Source: Eledone cirrhosa (lineage: Eukaryota). Taken from it: DNA of 64,000 bases. The stretch is taken from assembly GCA_964016885.1 (NCBI GenBank), contig OZ024740.1, forward strand, positions 361,336,001 through 361,400,000, read 5' to 3'. Below the pieces are notes generated by a model, which was not told the DNA's origin, made no database searches, and saw only the letters and a program-made list of their open reading frames with translations. The translations under genes and the position numbers were made by a program. Of this stretch, positions 10,833 through 62,908 are shown piece after piece (position 1 is the stretch's first letter; the number at the start of each line of letters is the position of its first letter).

Positions 10833-11683
10833 CTAGCACACGGGGCAGGATGCAGTGGTCGATGATAGCAAGCGATTCGGAGATGATTTCAGTCTTGCTT
10901 TCTTCACTTCCTCCATCAAGTTGGCCATATACCGGATCTCTCTTTGCAGATCTTCAACCTTTTCTTTTAATTTTGCATTTTCTGCCAACAGTTCTTCCTC
11001 TTCATTTAATCTTGTCTTAACTTCAGCTTTCATCTTCTGCCGATATCGGATGGCAGCATTCTTGTTCTGGAGCTTCTTCTTATCTTTCTTGCTGAGTTGC
11101 TGCTCTACCCCTGCAGTGCCATTGCATGGCGATGATGGTGATGGTGAAGATGATGCTGGTTCGGTACTTTTGCTTGAGTCATATGGACTATAGTTGTTGT
11201 TCTTTGTATGGCACGACTTAGATCGCTTAGCTTTTCCTTGAAATTTCTCTGGCTTTATGTGTGGAGTATTTGAGAACGATAAGGGAGAGCCAGGCTGAGA
11301 TGAGAAGCTACTTGAAGGAGAACTAATATCAAAATTAGATGAGTCAAGACCTGATGGGCTGCTAGCTGAGGATGAAAATGCATCTAAGCTGTCACTTTCA
11401 CACTTCAGCAATTGCACATCGAGTACTTGTGACTCTTCTGTTGCTATGCCAGTATTAAGTATGCTTTCTAAATCATTACATGATAATGGTGAAGACATAA
11501 GTACGTCACAGCGTTGGTAATCAAAGGGTGGAAATGTATTCATACCCTGGTCCAATGGAAAAGAGTCAAGGAAAGCATCACCAATAGAAAACATATTTCT
11601 ACCACTGTCATCGCCAACAGAGGCAGCAAATTCAGAGTGTAAAGTTTCTTTATTGGTGTGTGTTTCATCACAAAGAAATGTAT
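10833..11683 (-). CDS. ATF4: ATF4/CREB2-type bZIP transcription factor, last coding exon
   Basis: tttacag|AT acceptor; Ser-rich region, then KKDKKKLQNKNAAIRYRQKMKAE...LLAENAKLKEKVEDLQREIRYMANLMEEV (ATF4/5 basic region and zipper); AATAAA(-) at 10570-10575. Confidence 0.93.
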
Positions 11684-12808
11684 CTGTAAAGAGAGAGAAA
11701 AGAGGTGTTTGAGTGCATATGTGTTATGGAGAATAAAAAAGTATTTTTATTCATAATTGGAGAGGTGTTGGACAACTAATCATATAGTAATGAACAGAAT
11801 CACTACTGATGTCTCTATGAATAATACCTACCTTTGTTCAAGAAACTTGTAACTCAGCACACCAAGCAGAATTTTGGGTTTTCTGCATTAGGGATTTTAA
11901 CTAAACTATGTTCTTCATTTAACAGTTATAACATTTTGTTATAGGTGGTACATTAACTCTTTATTGAATGTACCAGAAACCCTATTAAGAATTTTGAGGG
12001 TTTTACTAAAATCATCATTTCATTACTAAGATATTAACATGGTTCTTATGTTGGAAGATTTTGATTTAAATGAGTGGTTTTGTTTCACAGAACCAAAGCC
12101 AGTTTTAACTCAGTTGATATCAAAAGGGTTAATATGCAACAAATGCTGACAATTCTCATGCCAAATCCAACTGTGTGTAATCACTCAACAGAAATATTCA
12201 ACATCTCGATCTCACTGTAGGTAAATTATAAATTATTATCACAGAGTGAACATGCCTTCTTGCTCATTACAACTAAGCAGTTAAACAGTTCTCTGAATGT
12301 AGTCAGTCTTCAAAGTTAGAGAACTATGGAGGGGGAAAACAGTGATGCTACATCTGGGGTTTTCTGAGCTAAGTTCAATCTTGCACATATTTGGTATTAA
12401 TTTTTCTCTCTAGATTATTCTTGCTGTATAGAAATTCGAGAAGTCATCATTGTCCGTTTTCTGTGCTGGCAAAGTTTGGATGCAATTTCGGTGGAGAATG
12501 TGGGAAAATTCATTTGAATAAAAGTAACCTTTGCTATATGAAAAGGTTGGGAACCACTGGTCTCCTCAGTCGATCAACTTTCGTCAAATCGGACTGAAGA
12601 AACAATGTTTCTATTGGTCTTTCCAATTGCTAGTACTATCTGTTGGTCTCAACTCCAGGTAGAAGGAGCAACATGAAATAAAGTGTCTTGCTCAAGGACA
12701 TAATGCATCGCCCCCGGTCTGGGAATCAAATTCACAACCTCACGATTATGAATCCAATTCTCTAACCACTCAGTCACGTGCCTTCACAACTGGTCTAAAA
12801 GAACTTAC

Positions 12809-15900: not shown

Positions 15901-17644
15901 TTTATCGACCCCGTAATGGTTGCTGGCATGTAATTACATTTGTTTCAAAATGGTTTTATTCAACATTTGGTATATTTGCGCAGCTGATTTAAACATAGGT
16001 CGACACTGCTTGAGCAATATGATCAAAAGCATTAAATTGGTGACTATATCTTATTTCTGGCAACAATTCCTATAGGTTGATGATGTAGTCTAGCAGCAGG
16101 TCAATCGTGATCTAGTCTTTTCTTAGAGACGGCCACGTGTGATTCCAGAGAGATTTTACTGTTTTTTGTAACAGCTTGAACGACCACGCAGAGGTTACCT
16201 CAACACATGACGTGGTATAATTTTAAATTACTTGTCTATTTACTTTATTCGAAAGTCACATAACTGAAAACCAAGCCAATCCTAGAGCCAGAGGAACTAC
16301 AAATTTATATATTTAAAAGTAAATGTCATCTAATAAACACTGTACTTGCTGAATAGAATGACAAAACAGCATTGATGACCATTCTTTGATTTATTCGATA
16401 ATTTGAGTACGATTTACTGAACTAAAGAAAATTATGTGTGTGTCTAGCTAACATACGGTACCGAGATTACACACCCACACAATTATATAGGCCAAATTGA
16501 AACATCGAAGTCACTATTACTTTTCTTTTCAGAAAATAAACTTTACACTGTATACAGTGCTCGTTCAGGCAATGTTTAAATGTTTTAAGTACAATGGCAG
16601 TTAAAAGAAGAGAGGGAAGTCGTTAACTTCGAAGAAAGAATGACACGTGTGCAAGCTAACAAGTACACTAGTTTAACTGATATACGCTCTATTTCATTGA
16701 AAGCCACTTTCCATTGTCGGAGGGCATTAACCTTGTATGTCTCGCATAAATTATCACACACACACATATATATCTATATCTTGAGACAAAGATACTTTCT
16801 GACGAAGAAATTTAATTAAAATTACTAAGAGCATTTTCGAGTTAATATTTTTCATAAAACGAATGAAATAAAGGAAACCACAGATGTCTAAGTAGACATG
16901 AATGCTTAAGAAATAATTTTATTATAAAATTTAATTTAATTTATAACAATATTTTCGAAGCTGTAAATCTTTGGTCATTTTAACAAAAATTATAGAAATA
17001 ATATAAAACTAGAACATTTCGCTAACTTTTGTTAGGTGCACTGAAATACATTTAAGACGTAATAAGGACAAGCAGACAAATCAATTCTTCATCATTTTCA
17101 TTCGATATATGTGTATTATTGAAGCCACTACTATTTTTGAGTTTTAATTTCTTTTTAAATTAGATAAATGGATTGACAGGTAGTTTGATTGATCGATAAA
17201 TAATCAGTCTACAACTCGTTCTGAAATCTATAGCAGTATTCGATTTTTCTCATCGGGGAACTGTCTGATGTGTAAAATAACTATAAGAGAAATCATCATC
17301 ATCGTCGTAATAATTCACTTCTTTATTTTATCCCAGCCGACACAAATTGACTAGATCGAATGCTATCATCCCGGAAAGCATGAAAGACAAAGATGATCAC
17401 AACGGAATTTGATCTCTTAACGAGGCTTTTCGCCCCTTCTAGTATGGTACAATGCCCTAATATTAATCATAACGATTTCTTTATTTATATTACAATAAAG
17501 TAATCGATTGTGGTATTGTAATTACTGAGTTGAAAGTAAACAGGAAGATAATCAATGAAGTAAATTTTTGATTTTGATAAATTCTTACCATTTGTTCTTA
17601 ATAGAAACAATAGATAAATATATATTAAAAAATACTTACGCCAT
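12886..17644 (-). promoter_or_regulatory. ATF4 uORF2 (spliced, 50 codons), overlapping the main ORF out of frame
   Basis: ATG GC (17644-17640)|G ATT ATT...AGG TGA (13033-12886) = MAIIQYDCVLAFATEISHINDNREKHGYGTERFRTRLVGRRKTGHVSNER*. Confidence 0.75.
13790..14640 (+). mobile_element. Degenerate CRE-like non-LTR retrotransposon fragment (restriction-like endonuclease region) in ATF4 intron 1
   Basis: [33 protein letters not shown] resembles the RPDGxTxxPW...WD motif; a related copy lies at 50760-51230. Confidence 0.6.
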
Positions 17645-17741
17645 TATGCAAAGGTAAACTTCGCAACTGGAAAGTTGCAACAGGGAAATTAGTGAGACAT
17701 TTTTCAGATAAACTTGTTTAGGAAATTGTAGGTGACTAAAT
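17640..17741 (-). other. ATF4: ATF4 exon 1 (5' leader) with uORF1 (ATG TCT CAC TAA, 17700-17689) and the uORF2 start
   Basis: Inr-like TCATTT (A at 17741) ~30 nt below TATATAAA; donor GGC|GTAAGT at 17640; alternative donor ATG|GTAAGA at 17589. Confidence 0.75.
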
Positions 17742-17764
17742 GATAAGATTATTGCGACTTCTAA

Positions 17765-18049
17765 TTTATATAGCCAGATCCACACATTTCATATATTGAA
17801 AAGTTCTATAAAAGACAACAAAAATTGTAAAAAATATACATAATTGATAATAATAATTCACAAATAACGATAAAAGAAATACTTTTTAATCATGTAATAG
17901 GGCAATATACTTAGAACTATGTTTTCTTAGCGTATTTATATCTAAATAGTTCGGTATTCATGAGAGATTGATCATTTACACGGGCTGATGCAATACTTCC
18001 TTTATTTTGATTGGTCAATTCGTGCCTCACCCAAAAAAGAATTTCGTCA
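17765..18049 (-). promoter_or_regulatory. ATF4 promoter: TATA box, C/EBP-ATF composite site, CCAAT box, CRE half-site
   Basis: TATATAAA 17772-17765; TGATGCAAT 17986-17994; CCAATC(-) 18014-18009; TGACG(-) 18049-18045. Confidence 0.7.
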
Positions 18050-18079
18050 AATACATTCTTCTGTCTGTCTATCTGTGTG

Positions 18080-18145
<66 letters not shown>

Positions 18146-18608
18146 AATGAGAGGTATAGAGATTGTTTTAGCGAGAAGCTAACAGCATTCTATAACATAA
18201 TATATATATATATATATATACGCGATATGTATAAGATATTCTCACTCTCTCTCTCTCTATATATATTTACTTCTCTGAATAAGATATTTTAACAATCTAT
18301 TTTCATTGAGATGTGTATATTTGTGACAAATTTTATAATATGTATAAATATATACATATACATAGTGGTAGTAAAAAACTCAGAAGACCTCCCACCACCA
18401 CCACTCAAGCGAGTGTTTCGGTCCTTAACTTATACTATAAATAAAGTTTATTACACTTAATATGTATGTCTGACCATTGGTTTCGGGTTCGATTTATGAC
18501 ATTCGGACAAAAATACACACTTCAACAGCATCCTAATAAATATTGCCTGTAATCAAAGTGTATACATTTTGGGGGACACCCTTTATATATATATACATAT
18601 ATATAAAT

Positions 18609-18688
<80 letters not shown>

Positions 18689-18732
18689 TAACAACAAAGA
18701 GCGCTTAGAACATAGGTATATCTTTGTTGTTA

Positions 18733-18782
<50 letters not shown>

Positions 18783-18822
18783 TAACAACAAAGAGCGCTT
18801 AGAACATAGGTATATCTTTAAT

Positions 18823-18868
18823 TGCTAACAGTGTTTCGTCCACACTAGAAGTGGGACTCTTCAGAGCA
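18823..18868 (-). ncRNA. Type I hammerhead ribozyme
   Basis: TGCT-CTGAAGA-GTCC CACT tct AGTG t GGAC-GAAAC act GTT-AGCA; next to a duplicated ~45-bp end motif and (TA)n. Confidence 0.7.
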
Positions 18869-19583
18869 TAAAGAGTAAATACATAGTATACAAGCATTGA
18901 CAAAGCCAAAACAGAAGAATATATGTGGGGATACCATAAGTTGGGAGGAGTTTAAAGAGTAAAGTAAAAGGAGTAAAATAAGAAAAGAGTAAAATAAAAA
19001 TAAAAATAAAAATAAAAATAAAAATAAAAATAAAAATGTTATCACTCACAGTTGGGCAGGGTTCCGTTAACATACAGCTACATACAAGTATACGCATAAG
19101 CATGAGCACCCGCATGCACCTACACACAAGCACCCGTATGCAACACATACAGTATACACTAATACAAATAACATATCATAGACGGATGGGCACAAGTTAA
19201 GAGATAGAGATAGATAAAAAATAGATAAGAGGTAGATAAAAAATAGATAAAAAATAGGTAAACAATAGATAAAAAAAATAGGTAAGAAATAGATAAAAAA
19301 AATAGGTAAAAAATAGATAAAAAATAGATAAAAGATAAAAAATAAAATAAAATAAAATAAAGTAAAGTAAAATATACACCAGAAGATAAATAAAACAATA
19401 CACCCAAAAAAAATGGAGTAAAATATACACCATAAAGGAAGGTGTGGGTAAAGATAAGACTGGCAAATGCATAAGCTATCAAGCTATGTTCAACAAGTGA
19501 TATACGTACAACATATAAAATACACAAAAATATATACAAAAATATATATAAAAAATATATATAAAAGAGACGTATATATAAGG

Positions 19584-19856: not shown

Positions 19857-20054
19857 TATAGTGAAATAAAATAACAAGGACGATTGGTTACTCCTTCATT
19901 ACGTTTATTGGTTAGTGACGCGCGTTTCGCCACTGATCAGCTCAAGGTTCGATTTGATCGAACAGATCGAACCTTGAGCTGATCAGTGACGAAACGCGCG
20001 TGACCAACCAATAAACGTAATGAAGGAGTAACCAATCGTCCTTGTTATTTTATT

Positions 20055-20062
<8 letters not shown>
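19857..20062. repeat. ~206-bp spacer-less palindrome carrying hammerhead 3' halves
   Basis: Arms pair around 19959/19960 with few mismatches; GAAACGCGCGT(C/G) in each arm; followed by (TA)n. Confidence 0.9.
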
Positions 20063-21391: not shown

Positions 21392-21420
<29 letters not shown>

Positions 21421-21426
<6 letters not shown>

Positions 21427-21972
21427 CAAATAACGAAACGAAATTAAATTTCGTTTCGTTTGTAACTCACTTTTGTATACATATGTGGATGTACATTTTT
21501 AACTTAATTGTTTAAGCGTCAGTCATACAAAAGTGAGTTACAAACGAAACGAAATTTAATTTCGTTTCGTTATTTGTTTTTATCGTCTCCGTTGATCCGG
21601 TACGTACTCACACTCTATGCAAATTAGTCTGCCCACTACTAATTTTCATAGAAAAAGCATATAACGATATGTGCTTTTACGATTCTCTAGAAAGGCCGGG
21701 AGATAGGTAAATATTGCTGATGAGTTGTAACAACAACGAAACTAGTTCAATATTCCTTGTCTGGCTTTCTGGAGAATAGAGGAAAGGTGTTTCCTCAAAA
21801 ACCAGTATGACTCTAAAAACCGGTTTGTCTGTGTGTTTACATACAGAATAGCTGGACACTCACAGTAAAGTGACCAGTGAAAAAATCGGTACATCTACAT
21901 ATGTATACGTGTGTGTATTCATATGCATACTAGTATTTCAGTATACATATGTGGATGTACATTTTTAACTTA

Positions 21973-21977
<5 letters not shown>
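21421..21977 (+). mobile_element. Non-coding hammerhead element A (retrozyme-like): 466-bp unit + 37-bp terminal redundancy + inverted 5' piece
   Basis: Direct repeats 21475-21511 / 21941-21977; inverted repeat 21421-21478 / 21525-21582; ATGCAAAT at 21617-21624; flanked by (TA)n. Confidence 0.75.
21710..21754 (+). ncRNA. Type I hammerhead ribozyme (minimal stem III)
   Basis: AATATTG-CTGATGA-GTTGT aaca ACAAC-GAAAC TA GTT-CAATATT; perfect 7-bp stem I and 5-bp stem II. Confidence 0.88.
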
Positions 21978-22043
<66 letters not shown>

Positions 22044-22102
22044 AATATATATATATTCAATGATATTAAATAAATGGAAACTATATTTATAAAACCATAT
22101 TT

Positions 22103-22161
22103 ATTCTATTATATATATTTCAAGGGTACCAAAACTTTGGTACGCCCTCATCAGATAAAAT
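22103..22161 (-). ncRNA. Type I hammerhead ribozyme
   Basis: ATTTTAT-CTGATGA-GGGcGTACCAAAgtTTTGGTACCCTt-GAAAT ATAT ATA-ATAGAAT. Confidence 0.8.
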
Positions 22162-22257
22162 ACAAAGTTTGTTTTATAAATATTGACATAGCCAGGAAGA
22201 TCTTAACGGTTCAAGTTTTTCCTGGATAGATTATATATTTGTTAAATATCCCTTTTG

Positions 22258-22335
<78 letters not shown>

Positions 22336-25089: not shown

Positions 25090-27130
25090 TTACGGGGCCA
25101 ATGCACCCTTCGACCAGAACGGGTCGTAGTTCTGTGTGTTGATGGTGGGGGGGGGGGGGGGAGAAATAGGCCTGTGTGGCAAAGAAAAAGAGGGGGGCAT
25201 TTGAATTTCAAGTGTCATTGTGTCATTGTCCAGGTTTGCTCGTTTGAGACGATCAACGGAAACCGTTTCCCTGGAACCCCGAATGTCCAGTGTGAAATGT
25301 TTGTCTGTGCGAGCAAGCACACGATAGGGTCCAGAGTACGGCCGTTGAAAAGGGGGTCTCACAGCGTCGTCTCTAACGAACACATGGGTCCACAAGGCAA
25401 TATCCCTTGGGACGGCAGTTTTTACAGTCTGCTTCCTAGTGCCCATCAGTGGTAGATCCTTGAAATAAGAGTGAAGCCGGGACACGTAGGAAGCGGGGTC
25501 CTGCGAAGTCAGGTCAAAAGGGGCCAGCATTTGCCCCGGTAACGCCAGAGGCGTACCATAAACTAATTCGGCAGAGGAGAACCCAAGGTCCACCTTTACT
25601 GTCGACCGAATACCCAACAATACAATGGGTAGGTACTCGCTCCAACGTGAAGAGTCCATGGAAGCCCTTAAGGAGGCTTTGAGCTGCCTGTGGAATCTTT
25701 CCACCATTCCGTTTGAGGCTGGGTGGTAAGCCGTGGTTCTTATTCGAGTAGCCCCCAGGATTTGGGTTAGTTCTCGGAAGAGGTTAGACTCAAATTGACG
25801 ACCACGATCCGTTGTTATGGTCGTTGGTACACCGAAACGAGCGATCCACGAAGATACGAGAGTACGGGCTGTGGTTTCGGCGGTGATATCTGTTATAGGG
25901 ACGGCTTCAGGCCAACGCGAAAAACGGTCAACAATCGTCAAAAGATACGAAAAACCACGACTAACCGGCCACGGGCCGACGATGTCCACATGAATGTGAC
26001 GAAATCTTGCATCGGGGCAGGTGAAGGTTCCGAGAGGAGCCTTAACATGTCTATGAACTTTCGCTTGTTGGCAAGCGACACAGGAACGACACCAAGCAGC
26101 AATGTCACGTCTCATACCAGGCCAGAAAAATCTGGCTGTTATGAGTTTTACTGAGGCTGATACTCCTGGGTGAGAAATGCCATGTAAAGCGAGAAACGCA
26201 GTTCGTCGATGTTCCACTGGGACTAGAGGTCGTGGTGAGTCCAACGAAACATCACACAATATCTGTCCGTCAGCAGTTGAGATCGGAATGTATTTCAGTT
26301 TGCAATGTACAAACTCTGGCGATGTAACATCCAACGATTCGAGAGTGGGTTGGGCAGCTGCCATTCGATGTAAATCTATCTCCTCGGAAGACGAAATCGA
26401 TGCGATCGGCAGGCGAGACAGCGCATCGGCTGCTGTATTCAAAGAACCCGGAATATGTTGAATGTCGTTCGTGAACTGTGAGATGAAGTCCAGATGTCTC
26501 GTTTCTCTGGGCGAGTATTTGTCTGCCTTAGTTCGAAGAGCAAACGTCAAGGGTTTATGATCAGTGAAAATGGTGAATGTTCTACCTTCAAGTACATGAG
26601 CAAAATGTTTCACTGATAAATAAATTGCTAATAGCTCCCTTCCAAAGGTGCTATAGCGAGTTTCGGCAGGCTTTAACTTCCTCGAAAAGAACTCGAGTGG
26701 TTGCTGTACCCCATCACACTTCTGCTGTAAGACTGCGCCCACGGCGCTATCCGAAGCATCAACACAGAGCGATAGCTCGGCGTTGGGTACTGGGTGGGCG
26801 AGCAAAGACACGTTCGCTAACGCCTTTTTCACTTTTTTAAAATCATCAAGCTGCGTTTTATTTAAGGAAATGTCCATATTCTTACGCCGGCAACCCTTAA
26901 AAATCTCTGTCAACGAGAACAGCAATTTGGAACAACCAGGTACGAATCGCCTATAAAAATTTACAAGGCCCAGGAATTGACGCAATTGTCGCAGTGAACT
27001 TGGCGGAGGCAAACCCGATACTGCCTTAACCTTCTCAGGAAGAGGTCGAATACCATCGGCGTCAATCAGATGGCCTAAAAATGTTAGTGAAGTCGAGCCT
27101 AAAACACACTTGGAAGCATTAATACTGTAA
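25090..27130 (-). CDS. Gypsy pol 3' part: RT thumb, RNase H, integrase (HHCC, DDE, GPY/F)
   Basis: [33 protein letters not shown]...[31 protein letters not shown]. Confidence 0.93.
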
Positions 27131-27252
27131 ACGATCTGAGTTCAAATCCCGCCGAGGTTGACTTTGCCTTTCATCCTTACGGGGTCGATAAAATAAAGTA
27201 CCAGTAATACACTGGGTAATTGCTGGCCTTGTGCCTAAAGTAGAAACAATTA
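27131..27252 (+). mobile_element. 5'-truncated family A SINE inserted in Gypsy RT
   Basis: 122-bp match to family A; removing it restores the pol frame (...[17 protein letters not shown]...). Confidence 0.9.
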
Positions 27253-28346
27253 TATCTCTGTAAACGACGAAATACGAGATCCAGATGCTTTGAATGCTGC
27301 TGCGGGGAAGAACTAGCAATCAACACGTCATCGATATACGTGTACACAAAATCCAGGCCCCGAGTAATATCATCCATAAATCGTTGGAAGGTACTTGCAG
27401 CATTTCTAAGGCCGAAAGGCATAGTGAGGAACTCGAATGATCCGAAAGGAGTGGCAATAGCAGTCTTTGGGATATCCTCCTTGTTAACCGGAATTTGATT
27501 ATAAGCGCGGATCAAATCAAGCTTAGAAAAGATTCTGCAACCCTGCAATGACGATGCAAAATCCTGCAAATGCGGGATTGGATAACGGTCAGGCACAGTA
27601 ATCGCGTTTAAGCGTCGGTAGTCACCCGTCGGTCTCCAATCCCCAGAAGATCTAGGTACCATATGTAGAGGCGATGCCCAAGGACTTGTGGAGCGCCGAA
27701 TTATTCCCAATTCCAGCATGTGGTCGAATTCAAGACGTGCAGCTTTCAACTTCTCTGTAGATAATCTTCGAGGACATGAGAAAACAGGTGGACCTGTAGT
27801 GGATATGAAGTGTTCAATCGCATGATCCGGGCTAGTTATTCGTAACTTTCCTTGCGTCAACTGAGGGAATGAATGTAACAGGCTTTGATACTGGTTGCCC
27901 ACTTCAGCCAAGAAAAAGGAAGGGCTGACAGTGGCGACGTCCGGCTCTGAACCCTCGAAAGAAAGGCCTGTTTTAGCATCAACAAGGCGTTGTCTGCGAA
28001 TGTCCACCAACAAGGAAAAATGGTGGAGAAAATCCGCTCCCAAAATGGCGTATGGCAAGTCGGCGATAGTAAACTTCCACTTCAAATCACGCCGCAAATT
28101 TTTTAACCGAAGAGGAAGCGAAATTTGCCCATACGTTCGAATGGCCGTGTGGTTGACTGCTCGTAGATTTATATTTGCTTCGGCTGGGCTTTTTTTGAGA
28201 TAACTGACTGGCCAAATACTCAGCGACGCGCCAGTATCGACAAGGAAAAATTTTTTTGACCACAGGTCGTATACGAAAAGATGGCGGTTCGGTCGGTTTT
28301 CCCAGAGTTCACTAGCCGCTCCTAGTGGCTCTGCTTTGCGTTTCCC
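27253..28346 (-). CDS. Gypsy pol 5' part: protease and RT (-1 frame relative to gag)
   Basis: [41 protein letters not shown]. Confidence 0.93.
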
Positions 28347-29107
28347 GATCTCTTGTAATCACAGGGCGTGCGACAACGTTGCGCCCTACTGCCGAAGTTA
28401 GCATGATACCAACACAACGAAGAATTATTGTTGTCTGCGTTGTAGTGCTGGCGATGAATAGAGGACGGCGGCGAACGATACCTCAAACGTTGAGAAGGCT
28501 CTCTGTGATGTACCGTCAAATCTTCTACCTTTTTGGTGAGAGCTTCAATCAACTCCAACAGTTTGCCGTCGGCCACAGAAGAACTGCGTGGAGGGACGCA
28601 AGTTGAAGCCACATAAGGATTATGCTGATTGCTGTTCGAGTCCACCTCAAGTATCTTATCCGCGGACGCGGCAAGTTGCTCTAATGAATCCTTCTCTAAA
28701 CTATTGACCAATATCCTTTGCGCACTTGGTGGTAGACGTGAGAAAAAAAGTTGCTTTATGAAGGGGGTGTCAATCCCCTGGGAGTCGCTCAACTCCCGCA
28801 AATGTCGCAAATAGGAGCTCGGCTTCCTGTCACCCATTTGAGCATCGTCCAACAACTCCCGAAAACGGCTCTCTACCGACTTGGTATTTCTGCGAAGAAT
28901 TTCTTTTTTTAATGAGCCGTAGGTAACGTCGGCGTCTAAATCCGTCACAACGTCCTTCACCGAGAATGCCAAGGAAACAGGTAGGCCATTGATCAGGACC
29001 TTCAGCTTATGCTGTTCCTTTGTCTTCGTCAATTCAAAGAAACATTCCAGCTGCGCAAACCACAACTTGATGTCGCCTGCGAAGGAGGGCAAGTGATGTT
29101 GACTCAT
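28322..29107 (-). CDS. Gypsy gag (261 aa)
   Basis: [10 protein letters not shown]...[12 protein letters not shown]...[18 protein letters not shown]. Confidence 0.92.
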
Positions 29108-30062
29108 GGTGCCACGTATTTGATGACTTTTTGGTGTTGGTCAATAGTTAGCCAGGTGTTGCTGCTGATTGCTGGTAATTGGTGGTAGCCGTTTTGAAAT
29201 ACTGCTAATTTTTTTTCTTTAAAAAAAAAATATTCTAAAGAAAATTTTAATAATAAAAAAAATCATTTTCTATGAAAATTAATGGTAAGAATATCCAAGA
29301 TGGCTGATTTAAAAATGTGTCCGTGATGAAGAAGCCGTCATGTGGCACGATGCAGCCAATCAGATGGCTGGGATTGGAGAAGACAAGCTGAACGCGGGAA
29401 AACGAAATATCTCCATTTGTAATTTCCACAGAATGTTGGAAGCAAAATTCTATATCCAGAGAAATCCTTTATTTTTTTTATTTTTTTATTTTTGTGTGTT
29501 GTATTTTTGTGTTTGTCTGTATGCGTGCTACAACAAATGGAATATAATGAATTTTATGGACTTACGCTAAGTGATTCGGACATTCCAAATGTTAAGCCAT
29601 TCCACATTGCCGTTAAAAAGAATTTCGGACTCCAATAGGCTGCGTTTTCATTCTTTATCGCCAGGGTCGCCAATAAAGGAAAGGGATGTTTCTCTTTGTC
29701 GAATAAATAAATGAACAATCAAGTCTAACAATCATTTTATTTAATGCAATAATTTAGTAAATTTCCTACAACGTCAATATTTTGAGGAGCGGATCTTTCC
29801 ACGTCTGTTCATGTCCGTGGTCCAAAAAGAGTGAGTGAACCTGTGGCTGTGTCCGGGTGTATTTTTGCCTCCGCTCCCTGAAGGGTTAAGGGGAGGCAAC
29901 TGCTAGTTGCCAAGCGACCATCTCAGCCACTACATATGTATACAGACGTACAGTAGTATGTATAACGGCGGCGAAGATTCGAAACCGAATCTGAGCTTTC
30001 CCGCCTCTGGGACAAGCCGTGGTAAGTTGTTTACGCTCAAGAGACTAACCCCTTGGGAGAGG

Positions 30063-31889: not shown

Positions 31890-32760
31890 AGCGAAGAGAA
31901 GGTTTTAAATAAAGCATATAACAGTAACAAGCGATATACTGGGATTTTAGAATACACAAGATTATTTAGAACAGCCAGACAGAATTATAGAATAGCATTG
32001 AGAAAGTAGGATTGGATTCTGGGCGATTATACAGATATATGGAAGAATGAACCGAAGGGTGGGGAGACAAGAAGAAAATGGTGTTTTTACATTACATTTC
32101 GTAGAAGTGGACTGACCATTAATAAGAGTTGACAAATTCTGAGATTCGTACCTCGTAACAGGTTTATTTATATTTGGTGCGAGTAGGGAGTGATCGAGTG
32201 AGAGAGAGAGAGAGACCAACAGGCACGTATGTGATAAAGAGGGGGGGGGGGGGGCAGAGATTTAGAGGGACTAGGGAGGCCATTTTTATGAATCCTGGAA
32301 AATTTCGGCCAAAATTAAGATTAAGCGAGGAGAAGGTTTTAAATAAAGCATATAACAGTAACAAGCGATATACTGGGATTTTAAAATACACAAGATTATT
32401 TAGAACAGCCAGACAGAATTATAGAATAGCATTGAGAAAGTAGGATTGGATTCTGGGCAAGTAGGATTGGATACAGATTTATGAATAAAATTCTTTTCTT
32501 TGATTTTTCTCTTGATTTCACTTGGCCTGTGTAATTTGTAGAATGGAAATATTATAAATATTTTCTGACCACATGTTGCTAGATGGTTACTCAGGGGTAT
32601 CTGACGGACATTTGGGTCTCTGATTTTCTGTCGGTGCACCCGTGCACGTTCCGATAGTGCATTTCCAGTTTGACCGACATATAGTTCTTCACAATTCGGG
32701 CATTTAATGCAGTAAATTAGATTTCTGCTTTTGCAGTTCATATTTGCATTTGGGAATATT
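31890..32760 (-). mobile_element. PLE 3' end (GIY-YIG with CCHH) plus pseudo-LTR repeat
   Basis: NLIYCIKCPNCEELYVGQTG...RARVH...HLATC; ~130-bp direct repeat ~31890-32022 / 32325-32458. Confidence 0.85.
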
Positions 32761-33265
32761 TTTCAAAATTCCAACCCAAGCTAAATGAATAATAATTCTT
32801 AGGGGTATAAAAACCCTAGAAAATGCTATTTTCATCATTTCTAAAAATAGCAAAACAATTGATGCTTTGAATAGGGCCAAATAGAAGTCGTTAGACATGC
32901 CCAACCAACCGTAATGCCTAAACCAATCACCTTCAGTAATCCAGTGAAACTACACACCGATTGGTCGAAATACAGTTTGCAAAATTTAGCATTCTGTAGC
33001 CGCTTTTCACTGTATATAAGGCACAACATTTACCCATCTCATTACAGTTGAAAATTGTAAACTTGACTGTCACCACAGAATATGAACCTGAAGATTGCGA
33101 AAACATGAAATTACTTGTTCAATTAACACTTAATATTGTACCATGCTATTTCATTCTAATACCATTATAATTTTAAAGGATTGTAAATAAAACGAGTAAA
33201 TCAGACAAAGTTAGAATTCCTTTTATTAATATAATCTTCTATACACAATCATACACACCCGTGTA

Positions 33266-46178: not shown

Positions 46179-46470
46179 CTAGCCGAATTACCAGCGCCTT
46201 GCTGCGTTTCACACATTTTTTTTGTAAGAAAATGATGATTGATTTTAAATCAGTGATATAATTTATGGAGAAAAACTCAATATTACTCAATGTAAAATAT
46301 AATTCATCATAAATTGGAAAACATCAAAATTGCATTATTAAATCTTATTTTTATTTTGTTTCTTGTAAATAATTTTTTTCAAAATATCAATTGAAAACTT
46401 TTGTGTATAGGCATATCTTGTCATTTGCCTATGTTTTAAGTTTCATATAAATCGAAAGGGAAAAGTTTGA
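46179..46470 (-). mobile_element. Helitron-type 3' terminal segment
   Basis: Minus strand CAGC-AAGGC-GCTG hairpin + GTAATTCGG + CTAG|T at 46179, the same layout as the element at 319. Confidence 0.6.
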
Positions 46471-48713
46471 ATGGCGATGATGGTGATGGTGAAGATGATG
46501 CTGGTTCGGTACTTTTGCTTGAGTCATATGGACTATAGTTGTTGTTCTTTGTATGGCACGACTTAGATCGCTTAGCTTTTCCTTGAAATTTCTCTGGCTT
46601 TATGTGTGGAGTATTTGAGAACGATAAGGGAGAGCCAGGCTGAGATGAGAAGCTACTTGAAGGAGAACTAATATCAAAATTAGATGAGTCAAGACCTGAT
46701 GGGCTGCTAGCTGAGGATGAAAATGCATCTAAGCTGTCACTTTCACACTTCAGCAATTGCACATCGAGTACTTGAGACTCTTCTGTTGCTATGCCAGTAT
46801 TAAGTATGCTTTCTAAATCATTACATGATAATGGTGAAGACATAAGTACGTCACAGCGTTGGTAATCAAAGGGTGGAAATGTATTCATACCCTGGTCCAA
46901 TGGAAAAGAGTCAAGGAAAGCATCACCAATAGAAAACATATTTCTACCACTGTCATCGCCAACAGAGGCAGCAAATTCAGAGTGTAAAGTTTCTTTATTG
47001 GTGTGTGTTTCATCACAAAGAAATGTATCTGTAAAGAGAGAGAAAAGAGGTGTTTGAGTGCATATGTGTTATGGAGAATAAAAAAGTATTTTTATTCATA
47101 ATTGGAGAGGTGTTGGACAACTAATCATATAGTAATAAACAGAATCACTACTGATGTCTCTATGAATAATACCTACCTTTGTTCAAGAAACTTGTAACTC
47201 AGCACACCAAGCAGAATTTTGGGTTTTCTGCATTAGGGATTTTAACTAAACTATGTTCTTCATTTAACAGTTATAACATTTTATTATAGGTGGTACATTA
47301 ACTCTTTATTGAATGTACCAGAAACCCTATTAAGAATTTTGAGGGTTTTACTAAAATCATCATTTCATTACTAAGATATTAACATGGTTCTTATGTTGGA
47401 AGATTTTGATTTAAATGAGTGGTTTTGTTTCACAGAACCAAAGCCAGTTTTAACCATATATCTTGAGGCAAAGATACTTTCTGACGAAGAAATTTAATTA
47501 AAATTACTAAGAGCATTTTCGAGTTAATATTTTTCATAAAACGAATGAAATAAAGGAAACCACAGATGTGTAAGTAGACATGAATGCTTAAGAAATAATT
47601 TTATTATAAAATTTAATTTAATTTATAACAATATTTTCGAAGCTGTAAATCTTTGGTCATTTTAACAAAAATTATAGAAATAATATAAAACTAGAACATT
47701 TCGCTAACTTTTGTTAGGTGCACTGAAATACATTTAAGACGTAATAAGGACAAGCAGACAAATCAATTCTTCATCATTTTCATTCGATATGTGTGTATTA
47801 TTGAAGCCACTACTATTTTTGAGTTTCAATTTGTTTTTAAATTAGATAAATGGATTGACAGGTAGTTTGACTGATCGATAAATAATCAGTCTACAACTCG
47901 TTCTGAAATCTATAGCGGTATTCGATTTTTCTCATCAGGGAACTGTCTGATGTGTAAAATAACTATAAGAGAAATCATCATCATCGTCGTAATAATTCAC
48001 TTCTTTATTTTATCCCAGCCGACACAAATTGACTAGATCGAATGCTATCATCCCGGAAAGCATGAAAGACAAAGATGATCACAACGGAATTTGAACTCTT
48101 AACGAGGCTTTTCGCCCCTTCTAGTATGGTACAATGCTCTAATATTAATCATAACGATTTCTTTATTTATATTACAATAAAGTAATCGATTGTGGTATTG
48201 TAATTACTGAGTTGAAAGTAAACAGGAAGATAATCAATGAAGTAAATTTTTGATTTTGATAAATTCTTACCATTTGTTCTTAATAGAAACAATAGATAAA
48301 TATATATTAAAAAATACTTACGCCATTATGCAAAGGTAAACTTCGCAACTGGAAAGTTGCAACAGGGAAATTAGTGAGACATTTTTCAGATAAACTTGTT
48401 TAGGAAATTGTAGGTGGCTAAATGACAAGATTATTGCGACTTCTAATTTATATAGCCAGATCCACACATTTCATATATTGAAAAGTTCTATAAAAGACAA
48501 CAAAATTTGTAAAAAATATACATAATTGATAATAATAATTCACAAATAACGATAAAAGAAATACTTTTTAATCATGTAATAGGGCAATATACTTAGAACT
48601 ATGTTTTCTTAGCGTATTTATATCTAAATAGTTCGGGCTGATGCAATACTTCCTTTATTTTGATTGGTCAATTCGTGCCTCACCCAAAAAAGAATTTCGT
48701 CAAATACATTCTT

Positions 48714-48829
<116 letters not shown>

Positions 48830-48956
48830 TGTAGGAGGTGAGTTTTATTGTAGTACAATAAAGCAATGAAGATATCGGATAAGAAGCACTCTACAGCTTG
48901 TAGGACTGGAGTATACATAATATATAAAATCAAAAGATGGTTAAAAGAGTTCCATG

Positions 48957-49027
48957 TATTTTATTATGCGCATTTCAAAAACAAATATCATCATGCAATA
49001 ACATTTGTGTTTTCATCAGATAAAATA
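48957..49027 (-). ncRNA. Type I hammerhead ribozyme (mirror copy)
   Basis: Reverse complement of 49146-49216. Confidence 0.85.
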
Positions 49028-49145
49028 GGAAGACATGATATGAAGGTTAAAAAACACTTGTGAATAGTGCAGTTTTAAATCAACATATGTTGATTTAAAA
49101 CTGCACTATTCACAAGTGTTTTTTAACCTTCATATCATGTCTTCC

Positions 49146-49216
49146 TATTTTATCTGATGAAAACACAAATGTTATTGCATGATGATATTTGTTTTTGAAA
49201 TGCGCATAATAAAATA
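49146..49216 (+). ncRNA. Type I hammerhead ribozyme
   Basis: TATTTTAT-CTGATGA-AAACACAAAT...ATTTGTTTTT-GAAAT GCGC ATA-ATAAAATA; 8-bp stem I, palindromic GCGC loop. Confidence 0.85.
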
Positions 49217-49464
49217 CATGGAACTCTTTTAACCATCTTTTGATCTTATATATTATATATACGCGATATGTATAAGATATTCTCACTCTCTCTCTATATA
49301 TATATTTACTTCTCTGAATAAGATATTTTAACAATCTATTTTCATTGAGATGTGTATATTTGTGACAAATTTTAATTATGTATAATATGTATAAATATAT
49401 ACATATACATAGTGGTAGTAAAAAACTCAGACCTCCCACCACCACCATTCAAGCGAGTGTACCC

Positions 49465-49897
49465 ACTAAGAGTGAGAAATGAAATTTCGTTTCATTTTTT
49501 CCGTTTATAATTTTCGGTGCACCCGGCCGATTAACTCACTCGATATGCAAATTAGGCTGCTCAGCTGTTCAATCATCTGGCAGGAAGGTATATGTTGCTG
49601 ACGATAGCTAATAAGCTTGAAACTTGTACAGCGTTCCTTAGTCAGTGTTGAACAAATGAGCAACGATGGTTGCTAGACACTGTATGGCTTAATTCGGGAT
49701 GTTTGTTTACAAACACACCGAGCATTATAATAAATGTTCGGTGAATCCATACGTACATATATATATATGTGTGCATGTATGTATATATATACATACTACT
49801 GTACGTCTGTATACATATATGTATGTACGTATACATACTTATATTTAAGTAACAGCCGTACTAAGAGTGAGAAATGAAATTTCGTTTCATTTTTTCC

Positions 49898-49904
<7 letters not shown>
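49465..49904 (+). mobile_element. Non-coding hammerhead element B (retrozyme-like): 395-bp unit + 45-bp terminal redundancy
   Basis: Direct repeats 49465-49509 / 49860-49904; ATGCAAAT at 49545-49552; ends in (TA)n. Confidence 0.75.
49592..49634 (+). ncRNA. Type I hammerhead ribozyme (minimal stem III)
   Basis: ATGTTG-CTGACGA-tAGCT aata AGCTt-GAAAC TT GTA-CAGCGT. Confidence 0.78.
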
Positions 49905-54532: not shown

Positions 54533-55192
54533 AATCATACACCCTTATTTGCATGCGCACATATGTATTTTTATACTCACATACAAACACCCAAACATAC
54601 ATACCTACCTACATATACATACATACATCCACGCTTACAAATACAAATAATAATAGTAGGGGGGGAAGGGGGGGGGATTATAGTAAATATAGGTTTCAAG
54701 AAACATAGAATATTAATCTGCATTTAGATCATAATATGTGTTTACATAGTTTCAGTATTAGGAAATGTAAGAAAGAAGGCAAAATTATGCATTTCAATAT
54801 AAGTATACCATTAATTATAGGTTAACTAAACTAAAGATAGTTAATATATTGATTTCTAAGGTGTATACTACTTAGGTTTATAATATTTGAAGCAGAATTT
54901 TGAAGTTAAATAGTAGTAGAGTATTAATTATAGTATAACTAAATTAAAATTATTAACGTTATGGTATCAATATTAGGAAATGAATTTAGTAATAGGGAAA
55001 AAACAAATAAAGTATTACATCGGTAGTAGAATATAAATTATAGGTTAACTAAATTAAAAATTATATATTAATTTCTATAGTATATGTTAATTAGGTTTAT
55101 AATAATTAAAACAGATATTGTATTTTATCTATAGTAGAATATAATTATAGGTAAACAGAAATTAAAATTAATACATACACATATACATATAC

Positions 55193-55229
<37 letters not shown>

Positions 55230-57790
55230 CATATATATACATACATATACATATTTTTTCAAAAATTGCAAAGAATATATTAACTAGGTATACATCCAAA
55301 ACCTATCTCATTCTATGATTACATGACACTCTGCAATCCATCTGTATTAGGATACTAATTTTAAGCCAATTAAATTAAATTTTTAGGTTGACCAAATTTA
55401 AAACCAAATTATAAATATATTTCTAAAATGTACATTAATTAGGTCTATAATACTAAAAATTATTTCTCTGTCATTGAATACACGATATTTTGTTATATTT
55501 TATCTGTAAAGGAATTTTAATAAAAGGTTAAATAAATTAAAATTAATCTATAAATTAATTTACTAAGTATATATTAGAAATATTTAAAAGTTTTTCACAA
55601 TTTATGATTACACAATATTTTATAATCTCATCTGTAGTAGAATTTTAATTAAATTAAATTTATAGGTTAACTAACATTTAAATTAAATTATATATTAATT
55701 TCTAAAATAATGTTATTAATTAGGTTTATAATATTTAAATGTTTTTCTTAGTTTATGATTACACGATATAATTAATTCCTGTCGTTTATTTAATAGGATA
55801 TCCTTAGATTTCATTATTTCAAATAGTTCTTGGGAACATAATCTACATTCATTTCTATTATTTTGATAAGGGGTGGCTCTTTTGAGCACACTCCAGGTCA
55901 AATCATATTCTATATTCTTATTTTTATAACTATTGATTTTTTCTGCTAGAGATGTTGTATTAGCCAGTGCGGCATTTTAAAAAACTATGTTTGTGGGTAT
56001 TAAACCTTACCTTAAAATTGTTAGAAGTAGCTCCTATATATGAGCAAATAGAATCTTTAGTTTTAACATTACATTTATAAACTATGTTGTTAACAAGACA
56101 ATTTCCTTTTAATGGGCAGTTTGCTTTGTTTCTACAGTTACAACCTTTCGTTAATTCTGTATTTGAGGAGATATTATGGTTAGTTTGATGTATTGGTGGT
56201 ATACTTATGGTTTTCTTACATTTATATGCATTATAGGCACTTATATTTTGTTTTATGTTATTTGTTGTTGAGTATGAGAATTTAACTGTAGACCTATTTA
56301 AGATTTGATGGTATTTGTGGTTTGGCGGGAAGTTTTTCTCTAGGATATAAAAAAACTTTTTAGCAATATTATCCTTAATTTGTAAATTAAATGGAGCATT
56401 ATACCAAGTAACCCGTCTATTACGGTTTCTATGTTGTTTATTATTTTTATAGGTTGTATCATGATGTTTACTAGGAGGATTAATGTTAATGATCTCACCA
56501 CGCACATTTTTAGTTATATTTGTAGATTTAGGTGTTTTATCTTGTTTATTAGGAGTTTTATTATTAACATTTATTAGAGTTGTATGATGAGTAGTTTTTT
56601 GAGAGTTACTATACTTTATATTAGAAGATTTGGTATTTTGGGGTATAGTGTGGGTGGCATTTAGGTGTGTACTTTTCATTTGGTGTTTGTTGGTAATATT
56701 AGGTTGTATGTTTTTAGTATTTTTAGTAGAAGGTATATATTCTAATCTATTTTTGTGGCCACTTCTATCTAGAGCTTCGTTATAGAAGGTCGCATTTTTA
56801 TCAAATACATCTTGGTTAGAAGAAAAAATAAGAAAACACGTTATTTTACCACTCTGGGAAAACACTTCCCAGGTAATTAACTGGTTTAAAAATATTAGAT
56901 GTAAATCTTCTGCTTCATTTCTACAATTTGATATAGATAATTACTATTCTTCTATATCACCTATACTCCTGAACAAAGCATTGATATTTGCTAAAAATAG
57001 ATCTAACTTAACTTTGGATGACATTAATATTATTACACATGCTAGACTAACACTTATTGAATTTCAGAATGAATACTGGACCAGAAACACATATAGTAAT
57101 CTATTTGATATTACTATGGGTTCAAGCGATTCCGCCCAAATTACTGATCTTGTGGGCCTCTTTCTCCTTTTCAACATAAATGCCTCCTTTCCCCACCTTA
57201 AAGGTGGTTTATATCGTGATGACTGTCTTCTTCTTTCCAACAACCTTAGCCTTTCAGAAATAGAAAAAAAACAAAAAGCATATTAGAACTTTCCTTAAAG
57301 ACTATTATAGTCTTCATATTACTTTTGAAAAAACAAGTAAAGTAGTAAATTTCCTAGATATAACTTTAGACTTAGCTACGGGTATCTACCAACCTTACCA
57401 TAAACCCAACCAAAACTTACACTACATACACTCACAATCTAATCACCCTAAATCTATCCTTAAAAACCTTGCATATAATATATCACTTAGAATTTCTAAC
57501 CTTTCTTCTAACCAAGATGTATTTGATAAAAATGCGACCTTCTATAACGAAGCTCTAGATAGAAGTGGCCACAAAAATAGATTAGAATATATACCTTCTA
57601 CTAAAAATACTAAAAACATACAACCTAATATTACCAACAAACACCAAATGAAAAGTACACACCTAAATGCCAATACAGATGGATTGCAGAGTGTCATGTA
57701 ATCATAGAATGAGATAGGTTTTGGATGTATACCTAGTTAATATATTCTTTGCAATTTTTGAAAAAATATGTATATGTATGTATATATATG

Positions 57791-57827
<37 letters not shown>

Positions 57828-60449: not shown

Positions 60450-62908
60450 AACATACACATACATACATATATATATATACATATATATATACACACATAC
60501 ACACATATATATATATATATATACACACACATACAAACATACACACATCCATACATATATATACACACACACACATACACACACCCACATACATATATAC
60601 CCACACACATATATGTGTGTGTCTCATCGTTCACTCAGATATTCATGTGTATACATAAGAAGAGGGGGTAGTGAAATGGAATTTTACCTCCGAGTGTTAA
60701 TTCATTTTTTCGTGTTCAGTAGTGGTTTAAATTTTTCAATGAAGAATTCTTCTTTATATCTGCGGAAATGTTCGTTATCCGACCATATCTTGAAGAAAGG
60801 GAAGATTGTGAATTTTCCCTTCCCGCATGATGCAAAGTGTGCGCTACATGTGGTATTTCTGACTGTGGGGTCTTTAATTTGTTGTTTATGTACCCGGACT
60901 CTATCATGTAATCCCGTTCCGGTTTCCCCAATGTAATACTCTTTACACTGTGGACATGTTGCGCAATATATTAGGTTTTTCGTTTTGCAGTTCATGTTTG
61001 CATTGACCTTGAAATTATCATGGTTTTTGAAGGACAACTGTTTGCCCTCTTCGATGAGTTCACAGGTTCCACATCTAGGGTCCCCGCATTTCGTCACTTG
61101 CATTGATTCCATGTTGGTCGTAAATTTTGCCTTGGTAATTAGTTTTTTAAGGCTGGGTGCTTGGCGTCTGCTATAAATTATCTGTGTTTTTTAAGAGTGC
61201 ATTCATTTTGGTAGATTGCTGTAGAATCGGGAGATACTGCTTAGCAGTTTTCACAATGTTGATGTTCCCTGGGTTGTGAGTGATGACAAAAGAGATAGCA
61301 GGGTTTTCTTTTTTATGTTGTGGGTTTGGTTTTCTCAGTGTTGTTATTGGGATGTTCTTAGCCTTGGAGATGGCTGCGTTGATGAGTTTCATCGGGTATT
61401 CTTGTTTTTTAAGGAAGTTTTTCAGGTCACATAATCTTTTTTCTTGTAGTACGGGGTGTGTTGCTATAGTGCAGATGCGCCTTGCCATGTTGAAGGGAAT
61501 GTTCCTTTTCGTATGTGAGGGGTGTGCTGACCGGAAATTTAAGTATTGGTGTGTGTCAGTGGGTTTGCAAAATAGGTCCGTTATGATATTTTTCCCTTCT
61601 TTAATGATGAGGATATCTAGAAAGGGCAGTTCCTTTTCGTTACATTCCATAGTGAATTGTATAGCTTCATGAAGCCTGTTTAAAATCGAATAAAATTTTT
61701 GTAGGTCTGTTTGGCTTCTGTTCCAGAAGATGAAGCAGTCATCTAGGTAACGTTTCCAGTTTTTATTAATGTAGAAGGCGAAGTCGTGACTGAATGTTAT
61801 CTGTAGTTGGGAATATAATTTTTCCTCTAAGTGACCCATAACGAGCGTTGCATATGTAGGGGCCGCTTTGGTACCCATGGCTGTTCCTTTTATTTGTAGA
61901 TAAAGTTCGTTGTCAAAGAGGAAGTGGTTGTTTTCCAATACTAATTTAAGTCCTTCCAAGATGAATTCTTTGGGGAATCTTTCTGAAATGTGACTTGAGT
62001 GTTTTGTAATCCAGAAGTCCACAGCTTCAATCCCTAGGTCGTGTGGGATGTTAGTGTACAGGCTTATTACATCAAAACTGACGAGGATTGTATCCTGGTG
62101 TACTTTTTGGGGGATATAGTTAAGGAATTCCATATCATCTCTGATGTAGCTTGCAACTTTTTTACATAGGGGTTTGAGTATGATGTCTAATAGGTTGCTT
62201 AGACGTTGTGTGCTTGAGGCTGGGCCAGCAATAATGGGGCGTAATTTTAAGTGTGTCGGTTTTGGTGTTTCGATGTATGATGTATTTTTCCCTTTTATGT
62301 TGTTTTGGATTTCTATGGATTTGTGAATTTTTGGTAATCCATAGAAATTGCTGGTTTTCATTTCGAAGTTGGTTAGGTAATCTACTTCTTTCGGTGTTAG
62401 GTTGTTTTGGTACTTTGTTGTTAGTTTGCCTATTTGGTTCCTCGATTTCCTTTCTTCGTTTTTAGTGATTTTCCTGTAGAAGTTTTCGTCATTCAAGTGT
62501 GCTAGAACCATATCTTTGTAGTGGTTTGTGTCCATGATGACGATTGCTCCACCTTTGTCCGCTTCTTTTATCATTATTGAGGAATCCCTTTGTAGCTTGT
62601 TCAATGCTAGGGAAAAAAACCAAAAAAACCCCCCACCACACCACAGACATGCTAAATCCCTATATATAGAACAACACACCACATACACATCAGTTTGACA
62701 AGCGCACCTCAGCGTGAAAGGTCGTTCTAAAAACGAAACAATACCTCCTACGTTAACCAAGAACTCCTAAGACCTAACTTAATTTATAAAATAATTTTTT
62801 TTAAGAAAAATTTTTTTTTCTAATCCGGAAAAAAATTCTTTTTGGATTTTGTGAAGAAAATAAATTTGTTGAAAGCACAAGTGAAGCCATTTTTTCTCCC
62901 CCCCTGTC

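Follow-up and report, generated by a model that had tools for sequence, protein, structure and literature searches.

A highly repeated hammerhead unit in octopod (TA)n repeats, probably a Penelope-dependent retrozyme, with an octamer box conserved in a sister element

We analysed a 64,000-nt stretch of Eledone cirrhosa DNA, referred to below as the window. Between two (TA)n arrays it contains a short non-coding unit with a hammerhead motif, unit A, bordered on the left by an inverted copy of part of itself and on the right by a repeat of its own start:

21395..21419, no strand: left (TA)n target array (tandem-repeat finder, TRF, and sequence)
21420..21478, minus strand: 59-nt inverted copy of 21525-21583, an exact reverse complement
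21475..21940, plus strand: retrozyme unit A, 466 bp, a circular permutation, 35% GC
21543..21571, plus strand: hairpin-forming AT palindrome shortly upstream of the main end, also kept in unit B
21583, plus strand: main 3′ junction of the family to (AT)n and predicted priming site, from contig ends; corresponds to 49902 / 49507 in B
21606..21632, plus strand: conserved box ACTCAC-N4-TATGCAAATTAG-N-CTGC, with the octamer at 21617-21624
21639..21650, plus strand: A-specific near-complement of the box (11/12), pairing with it in the predicted RNA and absent from B
21699..21770, plus strand: type I hammerhead (strict descriptor and Rfam)
21941..21977, plus strand: 37-nt terminal redundancy, an exact repeat of the start of unit A
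21978..22040, no strand: right (TA)n target array

The first-pass annotation of this DNA had described a 466-bp unit without coding potential, 37 bp of terminal redundancy and a (TA)n setting, all of which were borne out by repeat comparison, TRF and an ORF check; the AT palindrome it listed was located at 21543-21571. The longest ATG-started ORF in unit A is shorter than 23 amino acids on the ribozyme strand and reaches 50 amino acids on the other. Neither a tRNA gene nor an LTR pair was found in unit A, and tRNA-type boxes were absent from it in a short-motif scan. A miRNA identity of the palindromes was rejected, because their Rfam matches fell below the gathering score and were those of generic hairpins.

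Absent from that annotation and added here is the exact 59-nt inverted copy at 21420-21478, which overlaps the start of unit A by 4 nt (GTAT). Since 21583 is the main end of the family (see below), we read this left segment as a short inverted copy anchored at that end. A second junction to (TA)n, at 21977, lies upstream of the main junction, by 72 nt when counted along the unit. Inverted 5′-truncated copies, extensions of 30-40 bp and (TA)n targeting are described as standard Penelope features in the available parts of two studies (PMC8557442; PMC3846280). Judged by its sequence anatomy, locus A is a Penelope-type head-to-head insertion in (TA)n, and to this extent the claimed link to Penelope enzymes is supported. 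The AT hairpin at 21543-21571 would be a candidate recognition signal for the reverse transcriptase (RT).

Other repeats in the window also border on (TA)n. A hammerhead-like element at 18643-18880 (minus strand, core at 18864), which fails the strict descriptor, has its end repeated in (TA)n arrays together with a small inverted piece, and TTAATTG precedes (TA)n there as at the right end of A. A 206-bp palindrome (95%) at 19857-20062 ends in (TA)n and holds no hammerhead by the strict descriptor. Frames of a Gypsy-like LTR retrotransposon (gag, protease/RT and RNase H/integrase, classed by eye) occupy 25090-29140 on the minus strand, flanked by direct repeats of ~265 bp at 24357 and 29674 that are 98.9% identical.

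Part of the A stretch is contained in 20 of the 24 listed public sequencing runs, which carry 17 organism labels and come from 16 studies. No RNA data set is listed as containing it, a fact without bearing on expression. Family variation and junctions were taken from four of these runs, X1, X5, X9 and X23 among them. Run X1 yielded 1,155 variant contigs and depth in 30/30 bins of A, with summed depths at variant sites above 100,000 in most places, a summed depth being no copy number. Its 1.38 Gb of contigs and its (AT)n junctions suggest that X1 represents genomic DNA of a highly repeated family. Among the best 15 of 51 loose ends in X1, the best supported was at 21583, where 12 contigs leave the unit into (AT)n, while 2 contigs end at 21975 and pass into (AT)n. 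The 12 contigs mark 21583 as the main end of the family, and a second recurrent end lies near 21511/21977. No dominant shared flank was found among these best 15 of 51 loose ends, and the share of X1 running on into unlike sequence was 0. At 21596, 21700 and 21885 the copy in the window has bases that disagree with almost all of the X1 depth, which suggests a young insertion.

One contig of run X9 joins 21940 to 21475, going back 466, a joint that de Bruijn assembly can produce from a terminal redundancy of at least 31 nt. The window copies A and B comprise ~1.1 units each. Horizontal transfer is not claimed: depth in X9 is only 2.5-17 per listed contig, and trace carry-over of a very repeated sequence is the simpler account. 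The raw reads of X23 gave 0 matches in 1,938 Mb, a result that carries no weight as a test. In run X5 (88 Mb of contigs, with the same organism label as X1), the dominant variant at 21554-21788 is a minority in X1, where the X5-dominant alleles 21681A, 21688C and 21700T reach 13%, 19% and 16%; this variant is partly common to X9.

A sister element, B, lies elsewhere in the window:

49465..49902, plus strand: element B, a 395-bp unit with 43-45 nt of redundancy, followed by (TA)n
49534-49560, plus strand: box of B
about 49580-49646, plus strand: hammerhead of B, predicted cut after 49628, triplet GUA

A and B are collinear, with 273 of 385 aligned columns identical (71%; z 15.9 against shuffles), and on this alignment they are homologous. 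B ends at the position equivalent to 21583 of A. A joint fold of the two contains 75 pairs, 14 of which have changes on both sides, as seen in two sequences only; in stem II, three of the four alignment-predicted pairs are changed on both sides between A and B.

Next to B stands a partial duplicate of an ATF4 locus, at 46467-49460, matching 11122-12109, 16775-18120 and 18205-18416 at 99.6%, 96.4% and 92.7%. It omits about 4.7 kb, stops 4 nt before B and stands head-to-head with it. The deletion shows no clean splice signals, and capture by Penelope machinery is possible. The window also holds an ATF4-like bZIP frame (Pfam), whose named homologues are in Octopus vulgaris (55%) and Argonauta hians (53%).

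The octamer box announced by the first-pass annotation (ACTCAC..CTGC) is present at 21606-21632. That annotation had let its reading depend on conservation of the octamer among copies, and the octamer is kept in both A and B. The longest word that A and B have in common is the 12-mer TATGCAAATTAG, at a homologous place in each. The octamer alone occurs at chance level in the window (7 seen versus 5.2 expected). In shuffles of A and B, it appeared in both units in 2 of 5,000 trials, and any shared 12-mer appeared in 112 of 5,000. What exceeds chance is thus the conservation of the box at a homologous place in B, not the presence of an octamer alone. Within the octamer, 21623 is the only variable position listed (1% in X1 and one low-depth X9 contig). 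The box is paired in the predicted fold of A and mostly unpaired in that of B, a difference in pairing state that makes the constraint look, in these models, like one on sequence rather than on structure.

We searched public sequences with the hammerhead pattern and obtained 25 loci (24 metagenome, 1 genome and 0 viral). None of them held a homologue of A or B beyond the hammerhead, and the exact box pattern had 0 matches in public metagenome and viral contigs. L002 and L018, two of these loci, come from public metagenomes and consist of ~320-bp hammerhead units in tandem; we take them to be satellite-2-like from their size and their hammerhead type. A related box occurs on the opposite strand in 3/3 units of each, about 205 nt upstream of the next hammerhead, with one copy in each matching at 11/12 positions. 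It is the only 12-mer, with one mismatch allowed, that B shares with L002/L018 outside the hammerhead, and one of two for A; the 12-mer comparison of A and B with these arrays found no second shared block that could stand for a proximal sequence element (PSE). By chance, such a match arises in 17 of 20,000 trials for one 322-nt unit, and at least one match arose in 128 of 400 shuffles of all 25 loci. Among the 25 loci the box match is confined to one related pair (L002/L018), plus a variant in L001/L010. Because of this chance level, and because L002 and L018 form one family, the match is suggestive only.

Several of the other loci have features of their own. The variant in L001/L010, TATGCTAATTAG, lies about 520 nt downstream of the hammerhead. 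L001, L007, L010, L011, L013, L019, L020 and L022-L024 form a type I hammerhead family of metagenome contigs with a common TACACACAG stem I; L007 has a 987-nt period and a stem II like that of B. Locus L025 (1-393), a contig of a Vibrio assembly, contains a 346-bp terminally redundant unit with a Hammerhead_1 match of 34 bits and tRNA-like A/B boxes by eye, and is probably an animal retrozyme-like contaminant.

From its sequence, the box is a candidate snRNA-type distal promoter element, and its place on the opposite strand in L002/L018 would fit an element acting at the DNA level. We take it to match the POU-factor octamer, and the promoter of newt satellite 2 reportedly includes an octamer as well. 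An internal snRNA-type Pol II promoter is attributed to newt satellite 2 in secondary citations (including the review PMC6765202, available in part), and our literature search found no work connecting an octamer with a retrozyme or with newt satellite. Two related candidates were discarded. The stretch 21859-21873, which presumably resembles a PSE, is not conserved in B. A Pol III promoter of the U6 type is unlikely, since runs of T terminate Pol III and both A and B contain T5-T6 runs.

Alternatively, the box could be a signal in the RNA, bound by a Penelope protein or a host factor near the priming site, with transcription arising by read-through. We regard this as possible, if on the unlikely side. 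Its distance from the main junction is kept (34 nt in A and 38 nt in B), while that from the hammerhead is not (100 nt and 53 nt), and a 2020 review states that retrozymes seem to be without promoters (PMC7761336); both points favour an RNA-level role. Against it stand the word on the opposite strand and at another distance in L002/L018, the different pairing states in A and B, the match to the POU-factor octamer and the snRNA-type Pol II promoter cited for newt satellite 2.

The hammerhead of A consists of the core CUGAUGA (21717-21723), stem II (21724-21737), GAAA (21738-21741) and a CUAG tetraloop (21742-21745), with the predicted cut after U21747. It matches the whole of Rfam model HH9 with 37 bits (E 1.7e-8), short of the gathering score of 52, and an Rfam scan of the window at gathering level gave no match. 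With the strict hammerhead descriptor, the window contained 5 hammerheads and none of 100 shuffles contained any. Cleavage is predicted at a GUU triplet, and stem III comprises a single A-U pair closed by the palindromic tetraloop CUAG, with a predicted ACUAGU self-duplex of -4.8 kcal/mol. A type I hammerhead is thus present as claimed, and its likeness to that of newt satellite 2 is supported by the salamander-type weak stem III; ‘perfect’, the word used in the first-pass annotation, is too strong for a GUU triplet and a one-pair stem III. The hammerhead of B scores 13.7 bits on HH9, weaker than that of A, and in stem III it lacks the palindrome (duplex +0.3 kcal/mol). Both hammerheads are canonical, with a stem I of 6-7 bp and a distal stem.

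The GUU triplet and the one-pair stem III with its palindromic tetraloop make it likely that A cuts only as a dimer. Its single hammerhead would probably not release a full monomer by itself, and the A copy is likely to be a dead end whose source loci would have to be tandem. All 27 substitutions listed from the public runs leave the catalytic core and stem III untouched; 22% of X1 depth carries a stem II mismatch at 21736, and this mismatch, with the GUU triplet, means that cleavage may be weak. In the axolotl, HHR_Amex1 has a stem III of the same type, and its cleavage is poor in monomers and good in dimers, according to the available part of PMC7229834. Eight of nine Xenopus retrozyme dimers stayed uncleaved in vitro in the part of a recent preprint at hand (Li et al. 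2026, bioRxiv 10.64898/2026.07.22.740005).

Two further hammerhead elements were noted in the window. Element D (48911-49262) is a 352-bp near-perfect palindrome (98.9%) with two head-to-head hammerheads and a TGCGCA stem III. Element E (22040-22260, minus strand, core at 22154) is a hammerhead fragment directly to the right of A, between TA arrays; its stem III is TATATA, and it resembles D as well as ordinary Penelope 3′ ends.

The two segments of locus A lie within 13 nt of each other on the template (21511 and 21525). Twin priming, known from L1, leaves abutting segments, and by analogy those of A are what twin priming would leave. Together they require a continuous template of ~575 nt across the cleavage site, where a linear monomer freed by cuts on both sides would have no more than 302 nt upstream of the main end; B, too, spans its own cleavage site. 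The template would thus have been a circle or a multimer that stayed uncleaved, or else it arose from a jump. The long segments equal one unit plus ~40 nt (503 = 466 + 37 in A and 438 = 395 + 43 in B) despite different end sites, which favours a circle (n=2). The circular template proposed in the first-pass annotation is strengthened in one respect, in that the copy spans the cleavage site and could not be templated by a linear excised monomer. The terminal redundancy cited for it is by itself no proof of a circle, as short terminal extensions and inverted 5′ copies are general among Penelope-like elements, Naiads without hammerheads included, in the accessible text of PMC8557442. A 2014 study (PMC4209133, available in part) had proposed circular templates as the source of copies longer than one unit.

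Linear templates would lead to a different account, in which A is a short repeat mobilised by Penelope from uncleaved multimers or by template jumps, with a weak or vestigial hammerhead and no accumulating circle. Uncleaved multimers would also template copies across the cleavage site, and the GUU triplet, the one-pair stem III, the stem II mismatch in part of the family and the inactivity of most Xenopus dimers in the available part of Li et al. 2026 point the same way. We nevertheless find this account improbable: core and stems are kept between the families of A and B, which are ~30% divergent, with two-sided changes, and one unit plus ~40 nt with different end sites in both elements is easier to obtain from a circle (n=2).

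Enzymes of the Penelope type occur in this genome, as frames in the window show:

60705..62766, minus strand: Penelope-like RT frame (61174-62766) and GIY-YIG frame (60705-61190) (Pfam)

Homologues of these frames that combine RVT_1 and GIY-YIG reach 67% identity. No DNA similarity was found between the frames at 60705-62766 and A, and no partner element with sequence in common with A was found within the window. No RT/GIY-YIG frame or other coding sequence adjoins A or B, so that neither copy is joined to a coding Penelope element, an arrangement that the first-pass annotation had named as counting against a retrozyme. It is quite unlikely that the unit is the pseudo-LTR or 3′ region of an autonomous Penelope-like element, its copies being truncated products and no independent replicon, given this lack of neighbouring coding sequence, a unit that closes on itself with depth in 30/30 bins and no dominant shared flank among the best 15 of 51 loose ends, and canonical A and B hammerheads with a distal stem, where D and E are without that stem and look like ordinary Penelope ends. 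Elsewhere in the family, rare copies joined to such a frame may exist, the loose ends shown being 15 of 51.

Some further observations concern Penelope-like sequences in the window. The RT has a DKG motif and a CxxC linker, lies in a different frame from the GIY-YIG and is, we assume from these motifs, Neptune-like. Among named homologues, the closest belong to oysters (62-67%), owing perhaps to sparse annotation of cephalopods or to transfer. Another GIY-YIG fragment lies at 32403-32762 (minus strand). A Penelope-like element at 54533-58491 has an inversion in its interior and is bounded by 820-bp inverted ends (99.5%), both of which carry ATGCAAAT (54547 and 58470); three of its frames have no Pfam match.

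Taken together, A is a highly repeated non-coding hammerhead unit and probably a non-autonomous, Penelope-dependent retrozyme, predicted to spread through circular RNA; most likely it is a cephalopod member of the animal non-LTR retrozymes, of the salamander satellite-2 type. In the proposed cycle, head-to-tail source loci would be transcribed, probably by Pol II since the T5-T6 runs would stop Pol III, and the octamer box would possibly help as an snRNA-type enhancer. Two neighbouring hammerheads would then pair via the ACUAGU palindrome and cut after U21747, freeing a 466-nt monomer that a host ligase would close into a circle. Ligation by RtcB has been reported in vitro for axolotl and mussel retrozymes (PMC7229834, in the part available). 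A Penelope-like RT/GIY-YIG enzyme would nick (TA)n and prime just downstream of the AT hairpin, at 21583, and the second target strand would finally prime at the second site (the equivalent of 21511), resulting in the head-to-head copy.

Unit A is predicted to be highly self-paired, with 69% of its bases paired. Its raw fold has a z of -12.5, and values down to -18 occur in TA-rich control windows; when the alternating purine-pyrimidine arm is left out, z is -7.4 versus a best value of -5.4 among 30 control windows. Of the 27 within-family substitutions, 10 preserve a predicted pair, 8 disrupt one and 9 fall at unpaired positions, so that structural conservation is not clean. As modelled, the overall fold is plausible, its details being unproven.

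A bolder proposal is that an internal octamer, bound by a POU factor, drives Pol II transcription in retrozymes as distant as those of octopods and salamanders, and that octopod circles have a fixed priming site (AT hairpin plus U-rich end) from which a Penelope enzyme would copy one lap plus ~40 nt. We offer this conjecture tentatively and consider it unlikely to hold in full. If true, the Penelope transposition cycle, so far unsolved, would gain a cis-code that can be mapped, and the abundance of retrozyme circles would be accounted for. The findings on A and B bear on two open questions, the high transcription of animal retrozymes and their copying by Penelope enzymes, whose cycle is called undefined in the available part of Craig et al. 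(PMC8557442). The octamer box, the hairpin and the (AT)n junction, kept in two divergent families, are three short elements open to mutation, candidates respectively for the promoter, the signal recognised by the enzyme and the priming site. The box is the most testable point, given the view that retrozymes seem to be without promoters (PMC7761336).

The first-pass annotation knew of no such element in cephalopods, and no description of cephalopod retrozymes was found in the literature searched, a scope outside which most subscription papers, Repbase and Dfam lay, so that the family may already be annotated. In the giant squid genome paper, 235 Hammerhead_1 matches are listed and not analysed. 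Compared with the animal non-LTR retrozymes, as described in the available part of PMC7229834, A is alike in being a non-coding, low-GC unit a few hundred bp long with a type I hammerhead, in its predicted self-paired fold and in its coexistence with Penelope-like elements. The shared features found in A are the type I hammerhead (37 bits, below gathering), the size, a GC content below 50% and the many copies. At 466 bp, the unit is slightly above the range of 150-450 bp given there, and the fixed (AT)n junction and the inverted 5′ copy are not among the features described in that part of the paper; its main text contains 0 mentions of octopus or cephalopod. With salamander and newt satellite 2 and HHR_Amex1, as far as the sources at hand describe them, A has in common a one-pair stem III that ends in a palindromic tetraloop. 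Its host is a mollusc, whereas a stable stem III is ascribed to most invertebrate hammerheads (PMC7761336). Beyond the hammerhead and the box, which stands on the opposite strand, A has no sequence similarity to the ~320-bp arrays L002/L018.

The retrozymes of the Xenopus study (Li, Clavereau and Pollet 2026, bioRxiv 10.64898/2026.07.22.740005) include dispersed monomers, span 51-972 bp and are linked to Penelope pseudo-LTRs, like A. In the part of this preprint available to us, a Penelope origin of retrozymes is argued, 35 species are covered with no mollusc among the groups named, the pipeline requires tandem repeats, and an analysis of promoters or priming sites is not among the contents. 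EN+ Penelope-like elements (Craig et al. 2021, PMC8557442; Arkhipova et al. 2013, PMC3846280) share with A the inverted 5′-truncated copy, the 30-40 bp extension and (TA)n; A differs from them, as described in the accessible parts of these papers and of PMC4209133, by having no RT/GIY-YIG frame and a canonical instead of a minimal hammerhead. Hammerhead repeats of the Schistosoma SM-alpha type likewise combine promoter and hammerhead in one unit, and their single copies lose propagation (PMC6765202, in part). Their promoter is of the Pol III type, whereas A has T5 runs and, by short-motif scan, no tRNA-type boxes. The kind of element represented by A has thus been described before, and its Penelope link has been published; A adds a member from a cephalopod, an invertebrate case of the salamander-type stem III, an octamer box that is conserved and junctions at fixed sites.
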